Below are positions 4,950 to 11,805 of a stretch of DNA of 12,822 bases, in pieces. How positions within the stretch are numbered: position 1 is the stretch's first letter; each line of letters starts with the position of its first letter. A program made the translations under genes and the position numbers. The notes beneath the pieces are model-generated. The model made no database searches. It was not told the DNA's origin and saw only the letters and a list, made by a program, of their open reading frames with translations. The stretch is from a virus: the UHGV virus genome UHGV-1325350, one strand, 5' to 3'.

Positions 4950-5702
4950 TCACTCTCCTTTGATGCGAATGCCAGCGTCAGACATCATATGCAGATACTC
5001 AACTGCATCCTGAACCCATTGACCGCCAATCCCGTAATAGCGATGCGTAATGATGTCGATAGTTACTAACGGGTCTTGTTCGATTAACTTCCGCAGAAAC
5101 TCTTCCAGGTCACCAGTGCAGTGCTTGATGACAGGAGTTTTCCCAGGATGGCGAACAACAAGAAACTGATTTCCGACTTCACGGACTTCGTTGCTTTTCA
5201 GTTCTGCAATGCGCTTCTCTGAGGCTTCCAGCTTCTCTCGCATATCGTCAACGTACTCGACCAGAGAACCGCCAGCAGGAATTTCGCACTCCTCGACCAG
5301 TTGGAAGTAGATATCAGCTGCGGCCCGTGTGTTGCTATGCCTAGCGTCGCCCATCTCACCTTCACGAAGAGCATCGCGTTCGGCGGTAAGATTGGCTATT
5401 TTGCTGTCTTTGCCTTCCAGCTCAACGCGCAGCCTCCCAACCGTAAGCGCAATATCCTCGTTCTCCTGGTCGCGGCGTTTGATGTATTGCAGGTTTCTTT
5501 CCCGTTCATCCAGCAGCGTCAGCACGGTTTCTGGTCCGGTCAGAAATTTGAAGGCGTTGAGCGCATCAATATCCACACCATAATCTTTAAGTTCCTGTTC
5601 ACTTAACAAATCATCATCAGCTGGCAACATTAACAGGCGTTCCATTGCTGGAATTGCACGTTCCGCCGCCTCACGCAGTGCCTGGTAATTAATTTTGCTC
5701 AC
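4950..5702 (-). CDS. Ead/Ea22-like coiled-coil protein, paralog A (250 aa, GTG start)
   Basis: GTG at 5700-5702 with GGAGG at 7 nt. Central heptad-like segments RLRVELEGKD and KRIAELKSNE shared with the paralogs at 8276-8986 and 9306-10007. A 17-nt stretch (5199-5215) is identical to 8636-8652. Confidence 0.6.
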   Translation of the reverse strand: MSKINYQALREAAERAIPAMERLLMLPADDDLLSEQELKDYGVDIDALNAFKFLTGPETVLTLLDERERNLQYIKRRDQENEDIALTVGRLRVELEGKDSKIANLTAERDALREGEMGDARHSNTRAAADIYFQLVEECEIPAGGSLVEYVDDMREKLEASEKRIAELKSNEVREVGNQFLVVRHPGKTPVIKHCTGDLEEFLRKLIEQDPLVTIDIITHRYYGIGGQWVQDAVEYLHMMSDAGIRIKGE

Positions 5703-5988
5703 TGGTTGCCTCCGCTTTCCACGTTTTCAGACTTTCACCACAGAACGGGCAAAATGAAACCCGAATCGGCGATTTAGAAAACTCGCCTGACCGAAGCATG
5801 ATCAGATCTTGTGAATGAATTAATTCATGGTTATAGATTTTGTATTTCAGCAGACCTTTTCGCGTCGTGTATTCAGCATCCTGCTCCAGAGATTGTGCCA
5901 GCGCCGCGCACGGTTCTATTTTTCTGTCATTAATCAAACAAGTGGAGATTCTGCACTTTGCAGCTCCGTCACCGTTACCTTGACTCAT
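5689..5988 (-). CDS. Small putative zinc-ribbon protein (99 aa)
   Basis: Cys pairs C-x4-C (CRISTC) and C-x2-C (CPFCGE). ATG at 5986-5988. Confidence 0.5.
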   Translation of the reverse strand: MSQGNGDGAAKCRISTCLINDRKIEPCAALAQSLEQDAEYTTRKGLLKYKIYNHELIHSQDLIMLRSGEFSKSPIRVSFCPFCGESLKTWKAEATSEQN

Positions 5989-6001
5989 TGCGTTGTTTCC
6001 A

Positions 6002-6997
6002 TCAGTTATTGAACGTGATCACTCCGCGCTCAATGGCGAAGTCGAAAAGCTGGTTAGCGGCTACGTAAAGGCGGATGCCATGTGCTTTTTCCCATGCCCG
6101 GACATCGTTTTCTGCGCTTCTGGCGCAGTCATCGCAAAGAGGAACAGCCCAGCGGTCGTGTTCGTTTAACGAGCGGGCGCGGTACATGAATGGGTGGTTA
6201 ACTTTGCCACCGCATCCGATGCACGGACGAGAAACCACAAACCGGAGATAAGCCGGGCTTTTACCGAGGACCGCTTTTGGTCGGCGCATATAAAGCAGGC
6301 CGGAATCCTCATCTACAGACAGGTTGACGATCTGCTCTGCGGTTATGTCCACCAGCTCGCGGGTACTGTGCTCCCAGGTGATATCTGATTCTTTCAGCGT
6401 ACCGGTAGGGATTTCAGTTTTTGGCTGACAAAATGCAATGCGACCGGCTTCATCTGGCAGCTCATCTTTCAGATTCCGGCGAATGGCCCAAAAAGTGAGT
6501 TCAACCATGCTCAGATCGCGTTCTGGCGGTAGTTTTAACTCGCTCGCAGCCCAGTTCATAACCCAGTTGGCACGATTCAGGGATAACTGGTCGTCCAGCT
6601 TGCTGTACCCCTTCATCATGTATTCCGCATCATGCTTCCAGCACAGGCGAACGGCAGAGCCGTTATAGAAATGAGTGGTTAGCTGGTGGCTGCAATCGCG
6701 CTTATCGTGCGCCTGGCAATCGTGGATATTGGAACTTACCCAATGAACAAGCGAATCTTCACCGCCCAACGCGTTAAATACGCGCTCGCTTTGAAAAAAC
6801 GGTTTCAGAGACTGGTTGGCAACCAGCGAATAATTCAGATCCACTACGCCATCTGGCGTGTTTTCAGCCTGTTCACGCGGAAGTGGGGAGATAATGAAAC
6901 GGCGACCTACGCCAATGTAGTTACTGGTGGGCTTGTCTACCGGAAAGACAGCCACACCAGCTCCGTTTACGAAATGAGGTGTGATTATTGCACTCAT
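6002..6997 (-). CDS. DUF968-like phage protein with C-terminal Cys/His cluster (possible His-Me finger/HNH-like nuclease), 331 aa
   Basis: C-terminus PCIGCGG-x3-H...NEHD...VPLCDDC resembles the C-x2-C...H...H...LPLC pattern in the Ref-like protein at 11208-11786. A second Cys/His-rich patch lies near residues 90-130. Weak Shine-Dalgarno. Preceded by an operator-like palindrome. Confidence 0.55.
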   Translation of the reverse strand: MSAIITPHFVNGAGVAVFPVDKPTSNYIGVGRRFIISPLPREQAENTPDGVVDLNYSLVANQSLKPFFQSERVFNALGGEDSLVHWVSSNIHDCQAHDKRDCSHQLTTHFYNGSAVRLCWKHDAEYMMKGYSKLDDQLSLNRANWVMNWAASELKLPPERDLSMVELTFWAIRRNLKDELPDEAGRIAFCQPKTEIPTGTLKESDITWEHSTRELVDITAEQIVNLSVDEDSGLLYMRRPKAVLGKSPAYLRFVVSRPCIGCGGKVNHPFMYRARSLNEHDRWAVPLCDDCARSAENDVRAWEKAHGIRLYVAANQLFDFAIERGVITFNN

Positions 6998-7038
6998 AAT
7001 GTATACCGACTCTGTTTTGTTCCGAGCGGTAAAATAAT

Positions 7039-7069
7039 ATGTTAGAAAACTAAAATCAATGTTCTAACA
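7039..7069. promoter_or_regulatory. Operator-like palindrome TGTTAGAA-N14-TTCTAACA containing the recurring 11-mer ATGTTAGAAAA; possible internal promoter
   Basis: Perfect 8-bp inverted arms at 7040-7047 and 7062-7069 in the 97-bp gap between the phosphatase and DUF968 genes. On the minus strand TTGATT (plus 7054-7059) sits between the arms as a -35 candidate. The same 11-mer recurs at 11129-11139 and 11787-11797. Confidence 0.5.
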
Positions 7070-7094
7070 CATTATGAGTGCGTAAATGATTTGA

Positions 7095-7784
7095 TCAGAC
7101 TTTAAGCTGCCCTCCCTTCACCTGCATTAGCGTCAGATTTCCGCAAAAAACCGCGCCCGTGTCTATGTAGTGCTGATTCCAGTATGCTTTTGGTCTTCGT
7201 ACCGGTGTGTGCCCAAAGATAAAGCGATCTGCGCCTGTGATTTCTCCACCAATGCCATCTATCGAATCACTGATACGCTCGCGCGCCCAGACAACGTTGA
7301 AAAGCGGCACCTCCTTACCGAATTGATATTCATTATCCGGATAGTCGGCATGGGCTATAACGATAGTTTCTTGCCCGGTGTTCAACTCAATGATATAGGG
7401 CAGTCGTCTTACCAACTCCACCAGCGCCCTGGCTAATATTTCCTGATCAGCGTCCAGCATGAAGAACCATTGACCGCCATTCATTAGCCAGTTATTCACG
7501 TTGCCATCAGGACTTAACGCATCGAGCATCAACAGCTCATGGTTCCCCACTACTGCCCTGAACCAGGGCATCTGCAATAGCTCCAGGCATTCAACATTTT
7601 CGGCGCCGCGATCGATAAGGTCGCCAACCGATATCAGTAAATCCTGTGTCGGGTCAAAATCCACACGATGGAGTTCATTCATAAGTAGGGTGTAGCAACC
7701 GTGCAAATCACCAACAACCCATATGTTTCTGTAGCCTGAACCATCAATACGGCTATATAACGCCTGGTCGTTAACGGTGATCAT
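7095..7784 (-). CDS. Ser/Thr protein phosphatase, lambda PPase (NinI/PrpA)-like metallophosphatase (229 aa)
   Basis: PPP-family motifs GDLHG, GDLIDRG and GNHE in the expected order. Close resemblance throughout to lambda PPase as I recall it. ATG overlaps the upstream TGA (ATGA). Confidence 0.9.
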
Positions 7785-8008
7785 TCTGCAACATCCTCCA
7801 AATCAGCAACCGCGTCCATCACATCAGAACCGCGAATAACTTCAAAAGCGCGGCAGGCCATTTGAAATACCTGTTGTTCTTGCGGGTGCGGAGACTCCCA
7901 ATATTTGAAGCCTGGGCGATGCGTGTACCCCATCATGGAATAAAAATCGCCAGCAAGTTCAATCGCGGCATCAACAAGTTCGCGATTAGTCATTCGCTTT
8001 GCTGCCAT
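7781..8008 (-). CDS. Hypothetical small phage protein (75 aa)
   Basis: ATG at 8006-8008 preceded by AGGAG at 8 nt. Acidic C-terminus. Overlaps the upstream gene by 23 nt. Confidence 0.55.
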
Positions 8009-8279
8009 TTGCTTTCTCCTGTCGGAACATCACGATCATCAGGTCACCTTTTGTCGCTATCCTGGCTGTTGTGCCAGGCTCAATGCGGCTAAGTTCAAAT
8101 GCGTCATAGAACGCCTCTAACGCTTTCTGGCGTCTCTCCTGTTTGCGGCGCTTTCCCCACTGCATTAGAAAAACAGAGGCCGCCCACTTCCCCGCACTGA
8201 ACATGATGTAAAACCAACCGAGCAGGGCCAAACCTGTGTTGAGGGCCGTATCGAGCGTTATCGTGGTGTCGATATTCAC
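7986..8279 (-). CDS. Small membrane protein (97 aa, GTG start), one or two TM segments followed by a basic cytoplasmic region
   Basis: GTG at 8277-8279 overlaps the TGA of the upstream gene (GTGA) and is preceded by AGGGGG. Hydrophobic stretch TALNTGLALLGWFYIMFSAGKWAASVFLM followed by KRRKQERRQK. Confidence 0.55.
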   Translation of the reverse strand: MNIDTTITLDTALNTGLALLGWFYIMFSAGKWAASVFLMQWGKRRKQERRQKALEAFYDAFELSRIEPGTTARIATKGDLMIVMFRQEKANGSKAND

Positions 8280-8986
8280 TGATTGCCCCCTTCCCTAAGC
8301 TGTTCTGCACAATGCAGCAGCGCACCTGTCGCATCTTTAAGCGTCACTAGCTCGTCATCATCCAGTCCTACTCCCCTCGCGTCCCTGACAAACGCCGCGC
8401 AAAGGTCGTTAAACGCCCCCGCCCGCACTTCAGCCAGGAAAGCGCCAGTAGCAGGGGTGTCAATGCAAACACTGTCACGAAGGATGAAGAACGCATTAAG
8501 CATTCCTCTTTCTGGTACATCGTCCTGGCATTCCTCATATGCAACCAATGCATCCATCATTTTCTGACCGAATTGCTGAGGGTGTGCAGATTTCAGTGCT
8601 ATATTCTCCGCCGCCAGCGTCGCGCGATTGCTCTCCAGTTCTGCAATGCGCTGTTTTGCAGCATCAAGTTCAATCGATAATTTTTCCAACTGCTCTTTAT
8701 GCTTCTTGTATTCCTGATATGCGTGCCAGGACTGACCTTTGCGCACACTATCAGTAATATCAGTAATCTGTTCTGGTGTTAGCGTGGTCAGTGGCTGTGC
8801 TGGGAAAATCAGCACTTTCCCGGAATCCCAATCAAAACCAGCGTGAATTGACTGAACCTCAACTGAGGGTGTTGAACCAATGCTGCCAGGCGAATGAACA
8901 ACGATCGTTACATCCATATCGCGACGATGGCTGTGGTTGTTGGACAAAATACGATTCACCAACTCAGAAAATTTGGAAAATTTCAT
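8276..8986 (-). CDS. Ead/Ea22-like coiled-coil protein, paralog B (236 aa from ATG 8984-8986; ORF track GTG at 9037)
   Basis: The ATG overlaps the TGA of the ClpX-ZBD-like gene (ATGA) and is preceded by AGGGA. Central segment [18 protein letters not shown] shared with paralogs A and C. Confidence 0.6.
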
Positions 8987-9309
8987 GCTGATTCCCTTTG
9001 CTCTTCCTGGATAATGTTGTTGCAATCTTTCACGCACTCGTCGCAGATGAAAACGTTGTCCCCGGCAATTAACTTTTTAACGGTGTGCTGGGATTTGTTG
9101 CAGAAGCTGCAATAAAGCGTTGGACTGGCTGATACGGATGGTGCGCCAGATGTCAGCCGCGCGATGTCGTTCTTGCGACGCAATATCACACGGCTGCACT
9201 CGACCAGCATCTCCGGGGATATCTCCTCCTCCGTAGCGAGCGTCTCTAATCGTTCGAGTATGTGGAAGGCTTTTTCCTGGGTAATTGCAGAATGAGATGT
9301 GGTCATCAT
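8983..9309 (-). CDS. Free-standing ClpX-type C4 zinc-binding domain protein (ClpX N-domain mimic), 108 aa
   Basis: C-terminal [39 protein letters not shown] aligns nearly residue-for-residue with the E. coli ClpX N-terminal zinc-binding domain ([39 protein letters not shown]), including all four Cys. No AAA+ module follows. ATG overlaps the upstream TGA; AGGGG Shine-Dalgarno. Confidence 0.85.
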
Positions 9310-10007
9310 CTTTCCCCTTCAAAGTTCGGGCGCAGGCAGGATTGTCCTTTACGAAGCAGGGCTGCGAACCTGTCGGCCGCATCCGCGCAAGCAGAAGCAA
9401 CGGAATCAAAAAATGGATCATCTCCGGTATCGCGCATCGTCAAAGCGAATGCCTCCAATCCCTTAGCCTGTATTTCTACAAGATAAGCCTCAGATATAGT
9501 GCTTTTCGCTTCACCTAACTCGTTATGAGCTATGTTCGCTACGCATGCGATGTCTATATCTGGATGATTAATTGGGAGATGGCTAAGAATTGCCTCAAGT
9601 GCTGCTTTTTTGTTTTGGCATTCCGCCACCAGCGCCCCGCTATTGCTTTCCAGCTCTGCAATACACTTTTTAGCGGCCTCCAGCTCAACACGCAGCTTCT
9701 CAAGCGTTAGGGCCATCTCCACGTTCTCGTCCAGAAGTTCAATCACATCAGGATCGCTACCATCAACTACTGATATGCGCGAATTTTTGTAATGCTCGTC
9801 AGCATAAGTTCGTCCAGTTTTGAAGCATCCGTCATCCTCCATGCCGGAACAGGCATAAACAACATGTGATCCAGATATGCGCTGCATTGACATTTCCTCG
9901 CCACAAACAGGGCATTTAGGCGCTGGTTTCGGTGAATAACGTTCACGTAACGGATAGTAAAGCTCGATCTCCGCCAGTTGCTCTGGCGTTAAACCTTCAG
10001 ACTTCAT
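9306..10007 (-). CDS. Ead/Ea22-like coiled-coil protein, paralog C, with N-terminal Cys-rich zinc-ribbon-like segment (233 aa)
   Basis: ATG at 10005-10007 with AAGGAG at 5 nt. CPVCGEE...CSGMEDDGC near the N-terminus. Central [18 protein letters not shown] shared with paralogs A and B. Confidence 0.65.
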
Positions 10008-11115: not shown

Positions 11116-11143
11116 ATATTAATGTTTTATGTTAGAAAATCAA
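11116..11143 (-). promoter_or_regulatory. Predicted sigma70 promoter of the leftward operon (-35 TTGATT, 16-bp spacer, -10 TAATAT on minus strand)
   Basis: Minus-strand sequence TTGATT-TTCTAACATAAAACAT-TAATAT. The operator half-site TTCTAACAT lies in the spacer. About 25 nt upstream of the GGAGGA Shine-Dalgarno of the first ORF. Confidence 0.55.
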
Positions 11144-11159
11144 TTTTGAATATCTAACA
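11130..11159. promoter_or_regulatory. Operator-like palindrome TGTTAGA-N16-TCTAACA in the divergent control region
   Basis: Inverted 7-bp arms at 11130-11136 and 11153-11159. Contains the 11-mer ATGTTAGAAAA (11129-11139) also found at 7039-7049 and, in opposite orientation, at 11787-11797. Lies between the leftward operon and the rightward Ref-like gene. Confidence 0.55.
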
Positions 11160-11207: not shown

Positions 11208-11786
11208 ATGCAGAGACAGAGTTATTGGGAGAAACAGAGACAAAAAGCCATGCAAAAACTGGCTGATCCGGAATGGCGGGAAGAGCAAAGGGCAAAACGT
11301 CTTCAGCAGGCTCAACGCCAGCAGCAACGCGCAAGGGAAAAAGCCGCATCGCCTGAATATCGTCAAAAGAAACTTGAAAAAGTGAGGCAAAATGAACAGC
11401 GCAGAAGAGAGAGGGCGGCGTCAGCCCTCCCCAAAAAAACGCGCCCGTCACGCGGATTAAAAGGGAGATCACTCACAGCAGAAGAGCGCCGGATACAGGA
11501 CGCTATAGGCAAACTCCCCTGTATTGCCTGCCATCTTCACGGGAAGCATAGCCCTGTCGTATCTCTCCACCACATATTTGGCAGAACGGCTAAAGATGCC
11601 CATAAATACGTTCTCCCTTTGTGTAAATGGCACCACCAGCACGCAGCGCCAGCAGAGATCCGCGAACAATATCCCTGGTTGGTTCCTGTTCATGCTGATG
11701 GAAAAATAGGCGGGAAAGCAGATTTTATACGGCACAATGCCGAAGAGATGACGCTCTATCAGACGGTGCAAGAAATGGTGAATTAA
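11208..11786 (+). CDS. ref: Ref-like recombination enhancement function protein: HNH-type nuclease with basic low-complexity N-terminal half (phage P1 Ref-like), 192 aa
   Basis: N-terminal about 95 residues are K/R/Q/E-rich and look disordered. C-terminal half carries a His-Me finger/HNH-like motif (CIACHLHGKH...SLHHIFGR...LPLCKWHHQH). AAGAGG Shine-Dalgarno 8 nt upstream of the ATG. Architecture matches what is known for P1 Ref. Confidence 0.6.
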   Translation: MQRQSYWEKQRQKAMQKLADPEWREEQRAKRLQQAQRQQQRAREKAASPEYRQKKLEKVRQNEQRRRERAASALPKKTRPSRGLKGRSLTAEERRIQDAIGKLPCIACHLHGKHSPVVSLHHIFGRTAKDAHKYVLPLCKWHHQHAAPAEIREQYPWLVPVHADGKIGGKADFIRHNAEEMTLYQTVQEMVN

Positions 11787-11805
11787 TTTTCTAACATTTT
11801 ATGTT
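11787..11805. promoter_or_regulatory. Third copy of the operator 11-mer (TTTTCTAACAT) with small palindrome AACAT-TTT-ATGTT, immediately after the ref stop
   Basis: Exact 11-mer at 11787-11797 in forward orientation. A possible rightward promoter follows (TTGAGT 11804-11809, 17 bp, TACATT 11827-11832). Confidence 0.4.

Follow-up and report, generated by a model that had tools for sequence, protein, structure and literature searches.

The window, a stretch of 12,822 nt, comes from a P1-type plasmid prophage resembling D6. Its bases 5000 to 8000 are 95.8% identical to Escherichia phage D6, and its gene order is that of D6 orf87 to orf108, which runs from a umuD-like gene to an Ea22-like gene, the small orf99, orf98 ("HNH endonuclease"), and ppp and ends with a DUF4406 gene, with ref divergent. 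The counterpart of orf98 is a PdcB-type DUF968 protein gene at positions 6002 to 6997 on the minus strand, an ATG-initiated open reading frame (ORF) of 331 amino acids (aa). The junction between this gene and ppp is the same in approximately 116 plasmid records.

In the accessory region around the gene, ea- and nin-type genes of the lambdoid kind are assembled as a mosaic within a P1-like backbone. Immediately downstream of the DUF968 gene lies a 99-aa ORF (positions 5689 to 5988, minus strand) that overlaps the next gene by 14 nt, contains two Cys pairs (KCRISTC ... CPFCGES), and has no match in Pfam. The D6 counterpart of this ORF is described as "similar to upf87.4 of P7," and the product may be a small zinc-ribbon partner protein. 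Ead/Ea22-like paralogues are encoded at 4950 to 5702 and 9306 to 10007, both on the minus strand (Pfam PF13935; E values of 1e-26 and 2e-10, respectively), and the ORF at 8276 to 9037 contains a coiled-coil segment (...AELESN...) similar to theirs. A 108-aa ORF at 8983 to 9309 on the minus strand encodes a stand-alone ClpX N-terminal zinc-binding domain on this phage-plasmid; its C-terminal residues 66 to 102 are a zinc finger of the ClpX C4 type (Pfam PF06689; E = 6e-18). As a decoy, this domain could draw adaptors or substrates away from ClpX; the D6 counterpart of the ORF, gp034, is annotated "carboxylate--amine ligase," which looks wrong.

Residues 161 to 325 of the 331-aa protein cover positions 1 to 171 of the Pfam DUF968 profile (PF06147) with a score of 153.7 bits against a cutoff of 27.8 (E = 6.5e-45), and the protein also matches PHROG 96 ("HNH endonuclease") with an E value of 8e-103. 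It is 99% identical to D6 gp029 (orf98), whose annotation reads "HNH endonuclease; similar to P1 gene pdcB," and 37 to 38% identical to P1 PdcB over 99% of its length. Identity to the YdfU-type proteins that lambdoid and Stx phages encode in their nin regions is about 26%. The similarity to PdcB extends over the full length of the protein, and clade-specific substitutions are common to both. These data establish the 331-aa protein as the D6-type orthologue of phage P1 PdcB and as a multidomain member of the DUF968/YdfU proteins. Searches of NCBIfam and PADLOC returned no match for the DUF968 protein or for the Ref-like protein described below, and PADLOC was likewise blank for ppp and the 99-aa neighbor. 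P1 pdcB is still entered as being of unknown function (PMC10067587), and a literature search found no functional study of PdcB or YdfU.

The coding sequence was compared with that of a Salmonella plasmid orthologue. The dN/dS ratio for the whole gene was 0.07 (50.5 synonymous and 14.5 nonsynonymous differences), and that of the C-terminal module, calculated from only 6 substitutions, was 0.055. The DUF968 gene is under purifying selection, and a pseudogene reading was rejected on the ratio of 0.07.

The window also contains a gene for a Ref-like, RecA-dependent HNH nuclease of 192 aa (positions 11208 to 11786, plus strand). This protein matches Pfam RecA_dep_nuc (PF16786; 124.2 bits; E = 2.7e-36) and PHROG 2321, and the profile of its family matches PDB entry 3plw with an E value of 2e-76. 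All of its conserved Cys and His residues are intact, the invariant columns being C105, C108, H121, H122, H132, C139, H142, H143, and H162. A sequence-only reading of the window had aligned the two proteins by eye, pairing a C-terminal motif of the DUF968 protein with a motif of the Ref-like protein, and had suggested that both are built on the same zinc-stabilized His-Me finger core. Both motifs are present as it described: P258-C259-I-G-C262-G-G ... H268 ... N278-E-H280-D281 ... V285-P-L-C288-D-D-C291 in the DUF968 protein and PCIACHLHGKH ... LPLCKWHH in residues 104 to 143 of the Ref-like protein. When the two window proteins were compared pairwise by BLASTP, the similarity was marginal (E = 0.047, over PCIGC..PLC). 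Homologues of both families were then gathered and aligned (36 full-length DUF968 proteins and 27 Ref proteins), and the profiles were compared using hhalign. The family profiles aligned significantly, with a probability of 93.2% and an E value of 2.9e-7 over 74 columns, which bears out the proposed similarity at the profile level. This alignment pairs DUF968 residues 246 to 320 with Ref residues 92 to 190, matches PCxxC with PCIAC, PHH with LHH, AHD with AH, PLC with PLC, and CH with HH, and has one gap of approximately 15 residues at the finger loop of Ref. When only the C-terminal module was used, the probability was 93.6%. The C-terminal module and the HNH (His-Me finger) core of Ref are thus truly homologous.

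The C-terminal His-Me finger module corresponds to positions 6029 to 6256 on the minus strand (residues 248 to 323) and has the ββα-metal fold of the His-Me finger/HNH superfamily. Single-sequence and profile HMM searches of the PDB with the DUF968 protein did not find Ref or YbcO, and Foldseek matches in the PDB were weak, the best being EcoKMcrA (McrA) with an E value of 0.12. The fold shared by DUF968 and Ref is already known from the literature (PMC5714182) and from RefSeq and PHROG annotation. In the classification of Jablonska 2017 (PMC5714182), His-Me finger group 7 contains DUF968 together with DUF1364, and RecA_dep_nuc falls into groups 26 and 31; on the analogy of NinG and Ref, a function in recombination was proposed there for group 7. 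DUF968 had been described with a C-terminal zinc-finger HNH motif by Curtis et al. in 2014 (PMC4118853).

Although the fold of the module is that of a nuclease family, its active-site residues are not. The broad DUF968 consensus, QPCxxCG..AD-DPHHxIGHG..KAHD..PLCRxCHxELH, reads RPCIGCGGKVN-HPFMYRARS..NEHD..PLCDDCARSAEN in the window protein, so that the HH, CH, and ELH of other DUF968 proteins become FM, CA, and E and the four His columns are occupied by F270, M271, A292, and E296. We examined these columns in the P1/D6 PdcB clade, defined as the 14 sequences at least 36% identical to the window protein. Columns 270 and 271 are FM, FL, YM, YL, YI, or YQ in all 14 sequences; column 292 is A, T, S, Q, or Y; and column 296 varies among E, A, S, T, D, and R and is never His. 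P1 PdcB shows the same loss, with Y-I, Q, and E at these positions. In contrast, His is kept in nearly all DUF968 proteins outside the clade; about 45 more distant ones have it at each of the four columns (H-H, H, and H), and the H-H pair at F270-M271 is likewise found in Ref. The Cys residues at positions 259, 262, 288, and 291 and H280 are kept in 14 of the 14 clade members, and D281 is kept in 13.

Measured against the hallmarks of the superfamily, the window protein has F-M where the general-base His should stand at the end of strand β1, and it has A292 and E296 where the family has His at the core-helix positions that supply the metal-ion ligand (His or Asn), a role for which an acidic residue might conceivably substitute. 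The catalytic His has been described as nearly invariant across the superfamily (PMC5714182). The H153 residue of P1 Ref, a published active-site mutant position (PMC4330346), lies in VPVH and aligns with the ELH column, that is, with E296 of the window protein. The structural CxxC...CxxC zinc site of the zinc-containing subgroup, on the other hand, is present in the whole clade, as judged from Cys conservation. Since the His columns are lost throughout the clade, the window protein is likely not a working nuclease. The sequence-only reading had called the motif nuclease-like, and the first His of the motif that it quoted is H268. This residue aligns with the noncatalytic Asp of DPHH, and close relatives have R, T, S, or Y in its place; with F270-M271 at the catalytic His-His column and A292 and E296 at the other two, the nuclease-like implication is probably wrong for the PdcB clade. 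That reading had also said what would count against it, namely, a nonnuclease zinc ribbon with no catalytic His; of the two parts of that description, the lack of a catalytic His applies here.

Some YdfU-type proteins (P0046, P0052, P0056, P0071, P0078, and P0106) have the opposite arrangement: the four active-site His residues are kept and the zinc Cys residues are lost (CT..RE or CS..SA). This reciprocal pattern of Cys loss and His loss indicates that the structural Cys4 site is separable from the His-based active site.

A second Cys/His patch had been noted further toward the N terminus, and its residues (C94, H97, C102, H104, H109, C119, and H122) are all present. The N-terminal Cys/His module spans positions 6608 to 6727 on the minus strand (residues 91 to 130) and contains a ββα unit with a predicted zinc site formed by C94, C102, C119, and H122; the conserved D123 comes next. 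Of 36 homologues, 35 have Cys or His at each of the ligand columns (C94, C/H102, C119, and H/C122), and 34 have D123. In the structure model, a loop is followed by a β-hairpin (residues 106 to 111 and 114 to 119) and a helix (residues 120 to 129). An hhalign comparison of this module with the C-terminal module and with Ref was not significant (probability of <25%), searching the PDB with a profile returned nothing beyond chance matches to amylases, and Pfam had no match in the N-terminal 160 residues. The alignment of homologues contains no conserved His at the end of β1 of this module. From the model and the conservation, the module is predicted to be a second structural zinc module, and it is possibly a very diverged His-Me-like unit whose modeled fold weakly resembles HNH domains. 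That it duplicates the C-terminal module or is a YbcO-like domain was dropped in view of the hhalign and PDB results and is kept as a fold-level suggestion only. Zinc binding by the 331-aa protein as a whole is predicted from conservation and fold.

The sequence-only reading had placed the DUF968 gene directly downstream from an operator-like palindrome, and an inverted repeat is indeed located in the 97-bp gap between ppp (positions 7095 to 7784) and this gene. The repeat, ATAATATGTTAGAA-N14-TTCTAACACATTAT, has its arms at 7034 to 7047 and 7062 to 7075, is complementary at 13 of 14 positions, and lies 37 to 78 nt upstream of the start codon. A terminator reading of the palindrome was rejected because the stem is AT rich and is not followed by a T-run. 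The promoter-proximal half-site within 7034 to 7075 is invariant in D6 and two Salmonella plasmids, yet the intergenic sequences compared are 93 to 99% similar, too similar for this conservation to be informative. The core of the repeat at 7040 to 7069, TGTTAGAA-N14-TTCTAACA, recurs at 11130 to 11159 with the same half-site offset of 22 bp. This second copy, TGTTAGAA-N14-ATCTAACA, lies where ref and the long leftward operon diverge, and a single half-site, TTTCTAACA, is found on the plus strand at 11788 to 11796, directly after the ref stop codon; the D6 equivalent of this half-site is at 75980.

The complete D6 genome contains 12 exact copies of TTTCTAACA, compared with 0.9 expected; none of 100 Markov simulations gave more than 4. 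Of the 12 copies, 11 are in intergenic DNA. They are found upstream of c1, of hrdC-dmt (as an inverted pair), and of the DUF968 gene; between repL and icd; on either side of ref; and elsewhere. In D6 (L002/L003), the motif TTTCTAACA(Y)A is at positions 199, 8920, 9076, 10325, 11368, 21270, 54211, 64116/64139, 75980, 76640, 80732, and 89948, and at three to four loci it forms inverted pairs with the fixed 22-bp offset. P1 has 22 dispersed 17-bp C1 operators with the consensus ATTGCTCTAATAAATTT (PMC8546580). The extended D6-type consensus, TTAgTTTTCTAACAyA, has the TCTAA-A core and 10 of 17 positions in common with the P1 C1 operator, and D6 thus contains what a C1-type operator set consists of, a dispersed, multicopy motif at early promoters that include that of c1. 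From this pattern, we infer that the copies of the dispersed motif are the operators at which a D6-type C1 repressor would act and that its regulon would include both ref and the pdcB-like gene.

The palindrome had also been taken to suggest that the DUF968 gene heads a regulated suboperon of its own. A scan of positions 5600 to 8200 for σ70 consensus promoters found no site at threshold; a weak TTGATT-17-TATTTT overlapping the proximal half-site was seen by eye. An internal promoter and a suboperon headed by this gene are plausible. The leader (positions 6990 to 7081, minus strand) additionally contains a perfect 12-nt inverted repeat, GCACTCATAATG at 6990 to 7001 and CATTATGAGTGC at 7070 to 7081, through which, in read-through transcripts, the start codon at 6995 to 6997 would base pair with leader RNA upstream of it. 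The RNA from 6990 to 7100 on the minus strand folds with a free energy of −33.6 kcal/mol (z score of −6.4). The significance of the start-codon-pairing repeat is uncertain, since its distal arm has two changes in D6 and the two Salmonella plasmids and the repeat is imperfect there.

We consider it reasonably probable that the PdcB-type protein is a noncatalytic His-Me finger that binds DNA or a partner without cleaving it and that is under C1-type control. The gene, which has lost its catalytic His codons and is under purifying selection, most likely encodes a noncatalytic His-Me finger. The PdcB-type protein would consist of two zinc-stabilized ββα modules; the clade retains the Cys4 scaffold and has lost the general-base His, its neighbor, and both helix His ligands. 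It would bind DNA or a partner protein without cleavage, and its gene would be expressed with other early accessory genes under the control of a C1-type repressor acting on the operator pair just upstream, the same operator type that flanks ref. A more specific form of this proposal, to which we give slightly less than an even chance, is a conserved pseudonuclease with tandem His-Me-finger-like modules that has lost all canonical catalytic His residues but stays under strong purifying selection, is coregulated with Ref by shared repressor operators, and acts as a noncutting binder of DNA structures or RecA filaments. If this is true, the pseudonuclease may target, protect, or compete as a partner and is not the "HNH endonuclease" of its annotation.

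That annotation (PHROG 96 and D6 gp029) would instead hold if the protein were an active HNH/His-Me finger endonuclease with a noncanonical catalytic set and a recombination or repair role like those of NinG, Ref, and the YdfU-type proteins. The His-Me fold and the homology to Ref are real, and the recombination role proposed for group 7 (PMC5714182) agrees with such an activity. The clade also keeps H280, D281 (13 of 14), and D298 and has an acidic E at position 279 in most members, and the window protein has E296 in addition. Enzymes of the His-Me finger type vary, and E279, H280, D281, E296, and D298 might conceivably form a noncanonical active site. However, all four active-site His columns carry non-His residues throughout the clade, and the one further His of the window motif, H268, is not conserved. 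H280-D281 is equally conserved in the His-containing members, which makes a structural role more likely for this pair, as the counterpart of the "N" in HNH. An active nuclease thus appears unlikely to us.

Two predicted structural zinc modules without catalytic residues would also suit a zinc-finger regulator of transcription or development, for example, of early or late gene expression. One group 7 member is annotated as a phage transcriptional regulator, family members adjoin antiterminator Q in lambdoid phages, and P1 pdcB is directly upstream of lpa, the late promoter activator gene. Yet among such regulator annotations, some "Q" labels placed over the gene look like misannotation, domain searches of the 331-aa protein detected no helix-turn-helix or other regulator domain, and family members otherwise occur as fusions with recombination proteins or next to them, all of which make a regulator quite improbable. 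We give almost no credence to a convergent or chance Cys/His similarity to Ref in an ORF that is a decaying nuclease remnant. The marginal pairwise BLASTP result, the PDB searches that did not return Ref or YbcO, and the weak Foldseek match to McrA are what such a remnant would have in its favor, and it is largely refuted by the profile alignment, the fold comparison, and the dN/dS ratio.

The family is thus a known one with a modest new twist, and what is added here is the His loss of the PdcB clade, the predicted second zinc site, and the operator-like motif. Hundreds of P1/D6-like plasmid prophages of Escherichia coli and Salmonella carry a gene labeled "HNH endonuclease" that lacks the active-site His residues, and the label is probably wrong for this clade. 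The YdfU type, in which the His residues are kept, and the PdcB type, in which they are lost, form a natural pair for studying the function of a nuclease-dead His-Me finger. From the operator motif comes a testable map of a D6-type C1 regulon that would link ref and the pdcB-like gene.

Among known proteins, P1 PdcB and D6 gp029 have the same domain order as the window protein, and, as in the window protein, the Cys4 site and the HD pair are kept and the four His residues are lost. The genetic contexts differ: in P1, pdcB follows phd-doc-pdcA and precedes lpa, whereas in the window and in D6 the gene follows ppp in a lambdoid-type accessory block. The YdfU-type DUF968 proteins, which belong to group 7 together with DUF1364/YbcO (PDB 3g27), keep DPHH...CH...ELH, and the PdcB clade does not; some YdfU-type members have lost the zinc Cys residues while keeping the His residues. 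In comparison with P1 Ref (PF16786; PDB 3plw) and the Ref-like protein of the window, the DUF968 protein has no PF16786 match, no catalytic His, and neither the basic, disordered N-terminal DNA-binding region nor the helical finger loop, with its insertion of approximately 15 residues, that together with the HMM match characterize the Ref family; it has instead about 250 additional N-terminal residues, which are structured. The D6-type motif, TTTTCTAACAYA, differs in sequence from the P1 C1 operator and at three to four loci is arranged as inverted pairs with a constant offset of 22 bp, but both motifs are dispersed, mostly intergenic, and located at c1, repL/icd, and ref.
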